A stretch of 21,916 nucleotides of DNA from a virus (Duplodnaviria > Heunggongvirae > Uroviricota > Caudoviricetes). The notes beneath the pieces are model-generated. The model saw nothing but the letters and a program-made list of their open reading frames with translations. It was not told where the DNA came from and did no database searches. The stretch's first letter is position 1, and each line of letters starts with the position of its first letter. Below are positions 1,474 to 9,030 of the stretch, in pieces. Both the position numbers and the translations under genes were made by a program. Location of the stretch: IMG/VR virus record IMGVR_UViG_2531839663_000005; one strand, 5' to 3'.

Positions 1474-1758
1474 ATGGTTATGAAACATGAGGGAGAGGAA
1501 GAATCGGGCGGAGCCTTACATATGAGATCCCGCCAGATTAAGGAGAGTCAAAAACGTGGATTTATGCGGGTTATTGCAGAACGTTTGTCACTGGTGTTCC
1601 TTCGAGTTGCTCATCCAGAAATTTGTGTGTCCTCGCTAAGTTCAATGCAAGTGATTGTGTTACCCCTGCTGAAAACTGCAATCGCAGAGGAATATCACCA
1701 GCAGGGTGCGGAAGCACTACATCGAGTTGTAATTCGCCTGTCTTGGCGTCGAATTTAA
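1474..1758 (+). CDS. Hypothetical small ORF (94 aa) in the switch region, sense to the early transcript
   Basis: ATG with GGGAGA about 9 nt upstream; overlaps the antisense ORF 1571-1810; no recognisable family; several rare codons. At most one of the two overlapping ORFs is likely real. Confidence 0.2.
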   Translation: MVMKHEGEEESGGALHMRSRQIKESQKRGFMRVIAERLSLVFLRVAHPEICVSSLSSMQVIVLPLLKTAIAEEYHQQGAEALHRVVIRLSWRRI

Positions 1759-1810
1759 GACCTTTAAGGTCAGTAATCGGTAGAGGAAAAACGCCCTTAA
1801 ATTCGTCCAT
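1571..1810 (-). CDS. Hypothetical small ORF (79 aa) on the repressor strand, upstream of C
   Basis: ATG at 1810 with an A-rich leader and no clear SD; balanced amino-acid composition; no recognisable family. Confidence 0.25.
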   Translation of the reverse strand: MDEFKGVFPLPITDLKGLKFDAKTGELQLDVVLPHPAGDIPLRLQFSAGVTQSLALNLARTHKFLDEQLEGTPVTNVLQ

Positions 1811-2406: not shown

Positions 2407-2613
2407 GTGGCTGTGCAATTAATACAGTTAAGTCGTCACTCATATTTATATCGTGGCTTCACTATACAGAAATGCCCGCGTAATCCTTTTACGTTTAAGC
2501 ACTCTTATCGTATTTCCAGTAATGGTGATTATTACGGGCGTGACTTTGCTTTAGCGGAAGCCATGCGCACGGTTGATCAGATGTATAAGCAAGGGGGCAG
2601 CAATGCACGATGA
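2407..2613 (+). CDS. Hypothetical early protein (68 aa, GTG start)
   Basis: GTG at 2407 with GAGGGGG 5 nt upstream, immediately after the previous stop (2396); AT-rich. Confidence 0.4.
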   Translation: MAVQLIQLSRHSYLYRGFTIQKCPRNPFTFKHSYRISSNGDYYGRDFALAEAMRTVDQMYKQGGSNAR

Positions 2614-2833
2614 AGGCCCATCGCTGGCAAGCCTGCTTAAGCGCGGGTGCCAGGTTACACACTTCAAGAACTCACGCGGCTGGCTGGAAACACCAGACGG
2701 GCAATTTTTTAAACCTGAGCCTAGCAAGGTTCAATTTATTAAGGGAATGAGTAAGCCCTTTGTTTATACGAAGAAGATAAACAAAGGATTGCTTTTTAAC
2801 CTTGTTAATTCTTTAAAAAATTTAATTGGCTAA
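2603..2833 (+). CDS. Hypothetical early protein (76 aa)
   Basis: ATG at 2603 with AAGGGGG 5 nt upstream; overlaps the previous ORF by 11 nt; AT-rich 3' end. Confidence 0.45.
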   Translation: MHDEGPSLASLLKRGCQVTHFKNSRGWLETPDGQFFKPEPSKVQFIKGMSKPFVYTKKINKGLLFNLVNSLKNLIG

Positions 2834-2876
2834 CAACGCCAGTTAAATAGTTATTAGAAAACAGTCTTCACTGTCG

Positions 2877-2892
2877 TCACTTAATTAAGTGA
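2877..2892. promoter_or_regulatory. Perfect 16-bp palindrome TCACTTAATTAAGTGA, candidate operator upstream of the TerB-like gene
   Basis: Seen in sequence; lies in the AT-rich 94-bp gap about 36 nt upstream of the ATG at 2928. Confidence 0.35.
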
Positions 2893-2927
2893 TGGCGCTT
2901 TCACTCATCCTAAAAAGGATAAAGAGC

Positions 2928-3362
2928 ATGTTTAATAAACTGTTTGGAAAAAAAGTAGCAGCGGCAAAAGTTGAACTTAAGAAAGTGGAAAATCGCGATC
3001 TTATGGAAGCTATTGTCGGTGGTTGTCTTTTGGTATCTGCCGCCGATGGCGAGATCGAAAAAGAAGAAACCAGCAAGCTGGATCAGCTTATTCGCTCTAA
3101 CCCGCGCCTTGCGCATTTCGGCAATGAAATCACATCCACCATCAACCGCTATACGGAACAGCTTGAAGCTGGGTTCCGCGTTGGCCGCATGAACATTTTG
3201 CGCGAAATCGACGACATCAAAAACGATCCGAAAGAAGCCGAAGAAGTCTTCGTCAACATGCTGACTATCGCCGAAGCGGACGGCCAGATCGAACCGGAAG
3301 AACAAAAGGTGCTGGAAGAGGTCGGGCGCCGTCTGGGGCTGCGTGTTGAGGATTATCTCTGA
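2928..3362 (+). CDS. TerB-like domain protein (144 aa)
   Basis: Two TerB-like segments (LLVSAADGEIEKEETSKL and LTIAEADGQIEPEEQKVL); ATG at 2928 with AGGA upstream; the ORF-track start at 2889 lacks an SD. Confidence 0.6.
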   Translation: MFNKLFGKKVAAAKVELKKVENRDLMEAIVGGCLLVSAADGEIEKEETSKLDQLIRSNPRLAHFGNEITSTINRYTEQLEAGFRVGRMNILREIDDIKNDPKEAEEVFVNMLTIAEADGQIEPEEQKVLEEVGRRLGLRVEDYL

Positions 3363-3544
3363 TGCTGCGCGTGCTGGATTCACTACGTCCGGCGCTGGCC
3401 CTGCTGTTGGCCTTCATGGTCGTAGCAGTGGATTTCACCAGCTACCTGCTTTCGGTGATTGGCGACGCCTTCTTCGTTGGCGCTCTTCTTCTCCTTGTCT
3501 GGCCTGCCCTCAAGTCAGCTAACCAATCAGCGGATCACCAGTAA
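3362..3544 (+). CDS. Small predicted 2-TM membrane protein (60 aa), translationally coupled to the TerB-like gene
   Basis: Start ATG overlaps the upstream TGA (TGATG); two hydrophobic stretches (ALALLLAFMVVAV and FFVGALLLLVWPAL). Confidence 0.5.
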   Translation: MLRVLDSLRPALALLLAFMVVAVDFTSYLLSVIGDAFFVGALLLLVWPALKSANQSADHQ

Positions 3545-3586
3545 CAGATTGCCGGGGAAACCCGGCAATTTCGGAGGCTTCGAATC

Positions 3587-3799
3587 ATGACTAAACGCGA
3601 TCAATATAACTTCATCCTGCACGTTCTCTTACCTGCTGTTGAGCGTGAAGGGCTGACGATTAAAACCCGCCGCGATGGTGAGTTAACCCTTTCTTCTGAC
3701 GATCCCTCTGTTTCCTGCTTTATCGACGACATGCGCCAGCGCCTTACCACGGCGTTGCAGCGTCCGGCTGTTCCATCTTCCCCTTACGGAGTCCTGTAA
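3587..3799 (+). CDS. Hypothetical early protein (70 aa)
   Basis: ATG with GGAGG upstream; stop 1 nt before the dam start. Confidence 0.5.
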   Translation: MTKRDQYNFILHVLLPAVEREGLTIKTRRDGELTLSSDDPSVSCFIDDMRQRLTTALQRPAVPSSPYGVL

Positions 3800-7536: not shown

Positions 7537-8004
7537 TTAATCGCCTTCATGAATGTTATTTTGATGATCCATTATCGCCATTGCCAGTTCCAGCTTAGTG
7601 CTTTCTAATAATTCCTCACATAGAACCAAATCATGAATAATCTGTTGTAGTAAATCCTTGCTGACAGCGCTATCCGCAACCCAAACAGCAATGTTCTCCA
7701 TTTCTTGGACAAAGAGCTTTACACAATGCTCAAACCCATTGATTTCAAGGAAGAATGCGGAGAGAAATATTCCGGATCTTTTATTGCCATCAGTAAAAGC
7801 GTGAAGTTTGTTCACTGAAAAAAACAAATGTGTGAGCTTTGACTCAAAGCTTGGGTAGTACCAATCATTTTGGATATGATCGAGGACACTCTCCAGTACT
7901 CCTCGATCGCGAATGCCTTGTAAACCGCCAGAGCGTTCAATGATGTGATCATGTACTGCTATGGCGTGCTCAATATCAAAGTAATTAAACTGAATCTCAT
8001 CCAT
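7537..8004 (-). CDS. Doc/Fic-family protein (death-on-curing-like toxin), 155 aa
   Basis: Fic/Doc active-site motif HAFTDGNKR (encoded at 7777-7803); GAGGG SD 7 nt upstream; 12 nt downstream of the partner gene stop; AT-rich compared with flanking phage genes. Confidence 0.8.
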   Translation of the reverse strand: MDEIQFNYFDIEHAIAVHDHIIERSGGLQGIRDRGVLESVLDHIQNDWYYPSFESKLTHLFFSVNKLHAFTDGNKRSGIFLSAFFLEINGFEHCVKLFVQEMENIAVWVADSAVSKDLLQQIIHDLVLCEELLESTKLELAMAIMDHQNNIHEGD

Positions 8005-8016
8005 GGCAGCACCCTC

Positions 8017-9030
8017 TTAGCGATCTTTTAAGCGTTTAAACACTTCAAGAGTTTCAGGGTCATTGAGTCTCTCTTCGAGTGACTTGCTTTTCTCGCCTAA
8101 GAATCTCTCAAAGTCGCTTTCTGGTACCGATCGGACATAAGCCTCAAGTTTTTCATGCAAGGCATCACGGAAGCATAGATCCCTGCTCGCCATTTTGGTG
8201 CGAACATCAACCAGCATTGGCTCGTATAAGGGATGCTTTTCCATTGTTGATAAGATGGATTCTGCTTCTTTATATGTGAGTTTTCTGCCCAGGTGGGTGG
8301 CTTTTTGTTTTATCTCGTGAGCGAGGCCAGCTTCGAAACTAGCAATTAAGGTGAGAACCTCAGAATACATCGTGTCACGAATTTTATCGTTTTGATGTAG
8401 TTTCAGCACCTTGCGGTACTCATTTGCATTCTCATGGAAAATGCTCTGATAAATCGCATTGGTGAGTTTTCCAAACTTCCAACCATTGGCATCTACATAA
8501 TCATTAAGAGCATCGGTGAACTGTTTCCGATAGCTTTCTTCCTTGAATGCTGCAACAAGATAATCTTCATCTCTTTGGTTGATAAATTTTGTATGTCCGC
8601 CAGCGCGTTCTGCCAGTGTGTCGATAACGATATCAAGTAAACGTGTTCGAATGATCCTCGCTTGCTCACTTTCAACAAGCAACATGGCAAGGTTTAATAC
8701 GGCTCGAAATTTAAACACTCCAAGAACAGACGTTTTGGTACCCTCATTCATGAGGGTACCATCTGCCACCTCTTTGAATTCCTTTAAAATTTTCCCTTTT
8801 AGAATGATGTATCCGTTGTTCTTTAATTCATCAATGTTGCTGGTTAGGTACCTTTCTATCGTTGCGTCGCTAACATCAAAAATCTCAACCAATTGATTTT
8901 TGGTAAACACTATCTCGCCATCAAATTCGATCCCGCCCAAAGCAAGATGCTTTTCGGCGTGCTTGAGTGCATACGAATTATTGAGAATGTTTTGTCTGTC
9001 GTGAGCGGAGGTTGTCAGATCCTTAGCCAT
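8017..9030 (-). CDS. RhuM-family-like protein (tentative), 337 aa; first gene of the cargo operon
   Basis: Strong ORF with AGGAAAAGG SD; N-terminal winged-helix-like segment and central NLAMLLVESEQARIIRTRLL / EYRKVL segments resemble my recollection of RhuM-family proteins. The family call is not verified. Confidence 0.7.
   Translation of the reverse strand: MAKDLTTSAHDRQNILNNSYALKHAEKHLALGGIEFDGEIVFTKNQLVEIFDVSDATIERYLTSNIDELKNNGYIILKGKILKEFKEVADGTLMNEGTKTSVLGVFKFRAVLNLAMLLVESEQARIIRTRLLDIVIDTLAERAGGHTKFINQRDEDYLVAAFKEESYRKQFTDALNDYVDANGWKFGKLTNAIYQSIFHENANEYRKVLKLHQNDKIRDTMYSEVLTLIASFEAGLAHEIKQKATHLGRKLTYKEAESILSTMEKHPLYEPMLVDVRTKMASRDLCFRDALHEKLEAYVRSVPESDFERFLGEKSKSLEERLNDPETLEVFKRLKDR

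Follow-up and report, generated by a model that had tools for sequence, protein, structure and literature searches.

The window, as the whole 21,916-nucleotide stretch of DNA analysed here is called (IMG/VR virus record IMGVR_UViG_2531839663_000005), is a P2/186-like (Peduoviridae) prophage. The integrase gene (positions 1–981) and an HTH repressor gene (1051–1410) lie on the minus strand. The genes that follow on the plus strand are, in order, cox, two small genes, fil, tciA, tciB, a 70-aa gene, dam, a DUF4406 gene and replication gene A, and all of those from cox to A are tightly packed. The fil-like gene (2603–2833, plus strand) belongs to the family of phage 186 Fil, a cell-division inhibitor (Pfam Phage_186_Fil, 79.6 bits; phrog_816), and as the upstream neighbour of the tciAB cassette it marks the slot of that cassette. 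On the downstream side is the 70-aa backbone gene (3587–3799, plus strand; phrog_21140), which directly follows the fil hairpin described below in phages that have no cassette. Elsewhere in the window, a 79-aa ORF without a family match is located between the repressor gene and cox, on the strand of the repressor (1571–1810, minus strand); in the closest E. coli prophage it carries the annotation hypothetical, and it is absent from phage phiT5282H. Replication gene A and the portal gene are separated by a variable slot, which is occupied by a minus-strand pair (7537–9030) comprising a Fic/DOC-family gene (7537–8004) and a 337-aa gene with no Pfam match (8017–9030), which give full-length PADLOC matches to both components of the candidate defence system PDC-M59 (component B, 104 bits; component A, 349 bits). 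In the closest E. coli prophage, this slot holds ImmA/IrrE and a hypothetical gene in place of the PDC-M59-like pair.

The tciA gene (2928–3362, plus strand) encodes an acidic (pI 4.85), cytoplasmic TerB-family protein of 144 aa. Its product matches the Pfam TerB profile PF05099 with 54 bits against a cut-off of 24.4, residues 27–143 corresponding to profile positions 2–113 of 118, and matches phrog_632 ('tellurite resistance') with 209 bits. Residues 17–138 align with residues 22–144 of the solved Klebsiella TerB 2JXU (E = 1.1e-8), essentially over the full length. An alignment-based AF2 model is all-helical, with six helices and a pLDDT of 93.3; it was used in place of a poor single-sequence model (pLDDT 66). 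The top PDB match of this model in Foldseek is 2H5N, which we take to be a TerB-like structure, with a probability of 1.0 but an E-value of 0.03 and TM-scores of 0.51–0.59; 2JXU was not recovered. A first-pass annotation of this DNA, prepared from the letters alone, had pointed out two TerB-like segments of the form A(E/A)ADG.IE.EE, and both are present: AADGEIEKEE at residues 38–47 (3039–3068, plus strand) and AEADGQIEPEE at residues 115–125 (3270–3302, plus strand). Among 39 homologues, A39, G41 and E47 are invariant in the first motif and D40 is nearly so, while A115, D118 and E125 are invariant in the second, with G119 nearly so. At the DNA level, the two motifs form a 27-nt direct repeat (D1) that is 78% identical. 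As Pfam aligns residues 27–143 as one stretch, the acidic segments are the halves of a single TerB domain and not two domains. Compared codon by codon with its P1 counterpart, tciA has 68 synonymous and 13 non-synonymous differences, which argues for strong purifying constraint on the protein. By its profile and alignment matches, TciA is a bona fide TerB, in line with the TerB-like label of the first-pass annotation.

The tciB gene (3362–3544, plus strand) encodes a 60-aa DUF3927 peptide (Pfam, 33 bits; phrog_1470, 'TciB-like', 69 bits) with a conserved VDFTS motif, predicted to form a two-helix membrane hairpin. Its hydropathy profile consists of one unbroken hydrophobic stretch of ~40 residues (about residues 10–50), interrupted only by the aspartates D24 and D35, and this would fit a tight two-helix hairpin. 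No clear hydrophilic loop is evident between the hydrophobic halves, so the topology is given as a prediction. The translational coupling noted in the first-pass annotation is borne out: the stop codon of tciA (3360–3362) and the ATG of tciB (3362–3364) overlap by 1 nt in a TGATG junction. In all 81 close TciA loci, from P2-like, P1-like, D6-like and other phages, the start of tciB overlaps the stop of tciA (TGATG or TAATG; pairing scored by ORF analysis), by 1 nt in 80 of them and by 4 nt in one. Since the start codon of one gene overlaps the stop codon of the other, the two proteins are made together. A 171-aa JGI protein (P0066) combines two Pfam domains, TerB and DUF3927, and its aligned part matches the query with 100% identity; TciA and TciB may be naturally fused in it, or else a 1-nt frameshift at TGATG may have joined them. 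The cassette is not set apart by its base composition.

The locus is almost certainly the P2/186-like version of tciA-tciB of phage P1, an identity that the first-pass annotation did not recognise. In the closest E. coli genome, the same prophage is found adjoining cpxP, and its two genes already carry the RefSeq labels 'tellurite resistance TerB family protein' and 'DUF3927 family protein'. The pair is evidently not new, having been catalogued as P1 tciA/tciB and annotated in RefSeq. P1 tciAB has reportedly been known since 2004, and the name tci was given by analogy only. No functional study of TciA or TciB was found in the literature.

Between fil and tciA is a 94-bp gap (2834–2927) with a G+C content of 37%, compared with 54% for the whole window. 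It contains the perfect 16-bp palindrome TCACTTAATTAAGTGA at 2877–2892, confirmed from the sequence. The first-pass annotation had located it correctly in this AT-rich gap and had placed it 36 nt upstream of the gene; the distance is 35 nt, the ATG of tciA being at 2928 and not at 2929. The mere presence of a perfect 16-mer palindrome is unremarkable: when the window was shuffled 300 times with its dinucleotides preserved, 37% of the shuffles had one or more (mean 0.45). This one is judged to be real because related phages conserve it with compensatory changes. It forms the core of a hairpin, hp1, with the structure GTCGTCACTT-AATT-AAGTGATGGC (2873–2896, plus strand) and ten pairs, among them G-U pairs. 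When the full 107-nt gap is folded, hp1 is found in the centroid and not in the MFE structure, and it is part of the MFE structure of nearly all shorter leader folds. It is followed by a box, single-stranded and conserved in the alignments, that reads GCTTTC ACTCAT CC in the window (2897–2910, plus strand) and GGCGG..ACTCAY in relatives.

In about 72 of 80 Fil loci, the hairpin and its GGCG..ACTCAY box lie downstream of fil irrespective of the next gene, which may be tciA, the 70-aa gene or one of at least two further genes. A hairpin that occurs without the cassette and in front of various genes points to a backbone element and not to a cassette-specific operator. Its stem was compared in a fixed register as well as in a MAFFT alignment. 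In the latter, which is unfavourable to the more distant classes, five of the ten pairs have changed on both sides. There are 21 both-side-changed cells against 8.4 ± 3.0 in shuffles, none of 500 shuffles reaches this count, and slid registers score lower. The substitutions comprise C-G to T-A in one close relative and T-A to C-G, and G-U to G-C or A-U, in others, and some relatives have wholly different stems (CCACCG/CGGTGG, CCATCGC/GCGATGG). Loops are AATT, TATT, ATT, AAA or longer, ranging from 3 to 8 nt and including a 1-nt deletion. The perfect 16-bp symmetry is thus a peculiarity of the lineage of the window, in which the loop happens to be AATT.

These changes bear on what the palindrome is. 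A dimer operator was considered and rejected, as the arms change by paired substitutions and the centre varies in length, which leaves no fixed spacing of half-sites. The variable centre and the compensatory stem changes point instead to a folded strand, most simply the mRNA. An intrinsic terminator was likewise rejected: there is no U-run, the stem is followed by GCUUUCACUC, and the terminator scan did not score it. Pairing of the 3′ arm with the ACTCAT box, as a possible switch, was considered and dropped, the complementarity being confined, by inspection, to the lineage of the window. Rfam gave no match at gathering score in the window and chance-level matches only in 2750–3000, and an informal look by eye found no CRP, LexA, P2 Cox or IHF consensus boxes in the palindrome. 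The closest parallel is positional. In the early operon of phage 186, tR1 likewise comes between the fil block and the block of genes that follows it, and it too consists of a hairpin, a pyrimidine-rich tract and the next Shine-Dalgarno sequence; however, the two share no sequence homology, and the hairpin of the window lacks a U-tract and is not called as a terminator. In the phage 186 record, tR1 is among several terminators that are anti-terminated in early lytic development. The first-pass annotation had seen in the palindrome a sign that the module is separately regulated, and this part of its reading does not stand: the palindrome appears to be the core of a backbone hairpin of RNA type and not a switch of the cassette, and it should not be taken as a regulator site.

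The gap has little else to offer in the way of expression signals of its own. A consensus scan of 2834–2927 found no sigma-70-like promoter, although weak or activator-dependent promoters may escape such a scan. The Shine-Dalgarno sequence of tciA, AAGGA (2915–2919, plus strand), may in some folds pair with ATCCT at 2907–2911. A second hairpin that would hide this Shine-Dalgarno sequence appears in many folds and was rejected: the pairing probability of 0.63, compared with 0.59 when the upstream arm is shuffled, leaves it unsupported beyond base composition. The 3′-end of the cassette is occupied by a G+C-rich hairpin, ATTGCCGGG-GAAA-CCCGGCAAT (3548–3569, plus strand), followed by TTTC and the Shine-Dalgarno sequence of the next gene; it has no U-tract, and the terminator scan did not pick it up. 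G+C-rich hairpins also follow tciB in other P2-like tciAB loci, mostly with a GAAA loop and with stems that differ by compensatory changes and are still self-complementary. In three loci (L069, L071 and L085), tciAB is flanked on either side by a copy of a hairpin-plus-box sequence of ~45 nt, an arrangement which suggests that cassettes may be swapped at such hairpins. The slot behind the fil hairpin is a place of accessory-gene exchange in P2-like phages.

The distribution of the pair agrees with an accessory status. Among 80 Fil-bearing P2-like viral contigs, tciA-tciB is present in 20 and absent from 60. The cassette is missing from phiT5282H and SEN4/5, the nearest sequenced phages (94% and 91.5% nucleotide identity, respectively, over the shared parts), in which the 70-aa gene comes directly after fil. 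In complete E. coli genomes, 41 of 5426 match the region at all and 17 match it over its full length. The order fil-tciA-tciB recurs in a diverged prophage (76% nucleotide identity) that occupies the same attachment site, so the arrangement is not a one-off. On this pattern tciAB is an accessory cassette. The first-pass annotation was right in setting the genes apart from the core replication genes, and its description of them as moron-like holds for their patchy presence in syntenic phages but not for a promoter of their own.

The pair is not restricted to P2-like phages. It is also found in the lambdoid phage JLK-2012, in Salmonella jumbo phage pSal-SNUABM-04, and in 186-like prophages of Pectobacterium, where its place is again in the early operon, with cII on one side and the replication genes on the other. 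Close TciA homologues occur in virulent phages as well, which gives the protein a wide spread across lytic and temperate phages. In JLK-2012 the pair is located downstream of Q, a position that suggests late expression; its timing would thus vary among phages, and an early function would not be universal. In three unrelated phage types, P1 (L001), JLK-2012 (L087) and pSal-SNUABM-04 (L091), tciA-tciB adjoins tRNA genes, with tRNA-Asn and tRNA-Thr upstream of the pair in both P1 and JLK-2012.

A second, unrelated combination is found in Pseudomonas prophages and in phage AF, where a TerB gene is followed, with a 4-nt overlap, by a gene for a single-pass membrane protein of 67–73 aa (L172:4441–4644, L174:4435–4638 and L088:2932–3153). 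This partner has a conserved SCxWYGYQTERxT...VGCMV...GWVPR motif, is unrelated to DUF3927 and is unannotated in phage AF. In the Pseudomonas prophages, the TerB pair lies between the repressor and integrase genes, an interval that is presumably a PL-like early operon, as in lambdoid maps. PMBT3 and Vibrio phages have TerB with no obvious membrane partner at their loci. The coupling of TerB to two unrelated small membrane proteins is, in our view, the best argument that phage TerB may work at the membrane together with a co-made partner.

Taken together, these features favour, with somewhat better than even confidence, an early-operon accessory cassette that produces a membrane-tethered TerB complex. 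Its parts differ in strength. Co-transcription of tciAB with the early operon is probable: the cassette, having no promoter of its own, would be transcribed with that operon upon infection or induction, and transcription would pass the hairpin that matches 186 tR1 in position. With the cassette located within the early lytic operon, which runs from cox to A, expression in the lysogen is not indicated. A membrane complex of TciA and TciB is rather likely. In it, TciB would anchor or partner TciA on the cytoplasmic side of the inner membrane, and the two would be a minimal equivalent of TerB-TerC, or of the TerB-like domains that DjlA and YebE tether to the membrane. A specific physiological role for tciAB can be proposed only tentatively and is more doubtful than the complex itself. 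Early in the lytic cycle, the complex might act on the physiology of the membrane or envelope, alongside host-takeover genes such as fil, and might keep the infected cell intact in the face of pore-forming colicins, superinfecting phages or abortive-infection effectors.

Among the other explanations, one would have TciA-TciB mimic or titrate host TerB membrane surveillance, whether of the ter operon or of TerB-containing defence systems, such that infection goes unsensed. Such a counter-defence role would suit early host-takeover genes adjoining fil, the Pseudomonas pair between repressor and integrase (in the presumed PL-like operon), the wide spread in lytic and temperate phages and the very strong purifying selection; but it is purely inferential, the cassette is rare in E. 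coli prophages, and we regard it as unlikely. A broader and somewhat less unlikely, if speculative, version is that the phages of Gammaproteobacteria, temperate and virulent alike, have a general early-infection device in TerB with a co-translated membrane partner, either DUF3927 in enterobacterial phages or the unrelated single-pass protein in Pseudomonas phages, which would blind or pre-empt TerB-type membrane surveillance of the host or exclude superinfecting phages. If this were true, the device would be a counter-defence or exclusion module and not a resistance gene.

Much the same low probability attaches to the proposal from which the analysis set out, that of a separately regulated moron, here taken to be expressed from the prophage, with the palindrome as the operator of a dimeric regulator and superinfection exclusion or stress resistance as its function. 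It draws on the patchiness among syntenic phages, the AT-rich gap with its perfect palindrome, the hairpin at the 3′-end of the cassette and literature that associates the ter operon of plasmids with the inhibition of phages and with colicin resistance. However, the palindrome region is present in relatives that have no cassette, its arms co-vary around a centre of 3 to 8 nt in the manner of a hairpin and not of a fixed-spacing operator, and the genes belong to a repressed early lytic operon with no promoter-like site in the gap by consensus scan. The early-operon position, the missing promoter, the backbone nature of the palindrome and the occurrence of close homologues in virulent phages weigh against the moron and against abortive infection. 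In the latter reading, TerB would sense a perturbation of the membrane and the peptide would depolarise it, in the manner of Bunzi, Shango and Dionysus. TerB domains do occur in these three validated defence systems, and in Dionysus a TerB-like protein is combined with a pore-forming membrane protein, an architecture comparable to TerB plus a membrane peptide. Nonetheless, neither protein has a significant match among the PADLOC models (TciA reaches at best an E-value of 0.003 and 14.7 bits over 36 residues, and TciB gives nothing), the pair lies in an early lytic operon and is found in virulent and jumbo phages, for which self-killing would be costly, and knock-down of tciA or tciB in P1 leaves plating unchanged, all of which makes a defence pair improbable too. 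A true tellurite or metal-resistance auxiliary gene is hardly credible: the family name and the conservation of both acidic motifs, which others have proposed to bind metal, speak for it, but terC, terD and terE are not adjoining, the neighbours being fil, the DUF3927 gene and the 70-aa phage gene, and the authors of the PMBT3 study likewise judged a lone phage terB not to confer tellurite resistance.

The preferred reading, a membrane-tethered TerB complex made from an early-operon cassette, touches on a wider matter. Ever since the first description of the ter operon, the role of TerB has been an open question, and several anti-phage systems are now found to contain TerB domains. As about the smallest natural TerB unit, tciAB would be a convenient handle on what TerB does at the membrane. 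The presence of TerB in prophages and virulent phages had been remarked on earlier.

Compared with known systems, the pair shares with the defence systems Bunzi, Shango and Dionysus (DinB-DinC) the combination of a TerB-type protein with membrane proteins, and TerB itself is reported to be membrane-associated in the defence-system literature. Unlike those systems, tciAB has no helicase, ATPase or pore-forming domain and is located in the early operon of a phage. TciA resembles the TerB of the terZABCDE operon (Klebsiella, 2JXU) over the full-length domain and in both acidic motifs, whereas the window has none of the TerC, TerD and TerZ partners and a 60-aa peptide takes the place of the multi-pass TerC. 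Weak profile matches link TciA to DjlA (E = 2.4e-5) and DUF533/YebE (E = 5.9e-5), both below the family cut-offs. The logic would be the same, that of a TerB-like domain held at the inner membrane, but in DjlA and DUF533/YebE the anchor is fused in the chain, while in tciAB it would come in trans from the co-translated peptide.

The nearest known system is tciA-tciB-tciC of phage P1, also present in P7 and D6. TciA of P1 is 91% identical in protein sequence to that of the window, and P1 TciB is 45% identical, with the same DUF3927 and phrog_1470 assignments and the same VDFTS motif; the gene order and the 1-nt overlap of stop and start codons are also the same. In a CRISPRi table for P1, knocking down any one of tciA, tciB and tciC has no effect on plating, and the genes are thus dispensable for plaques; a phage-plasmid paper describes the tci operon as one of eight variable regions in P1-like phage-plasmids. 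A proteome of P1 virions included two unique TciA peptides in purified virions, which its authors set aside on the ground of a 'well-defined non-structural role' (PMC9024508). The window differs from P1 in having no tciC, tciB being followed by a hairpin and then, 42 nt on, by the backbone gene. The upstream regions are unrelated, homology beginning at the ATG of tciA, and P1 tciAB sits between tRNA genes, whereas tciAB of the window sits in a P2-like early operon after fil. As P1 tciAB offers the same handle on TerB, the window would add a new context for this pair and not a new kind of system.
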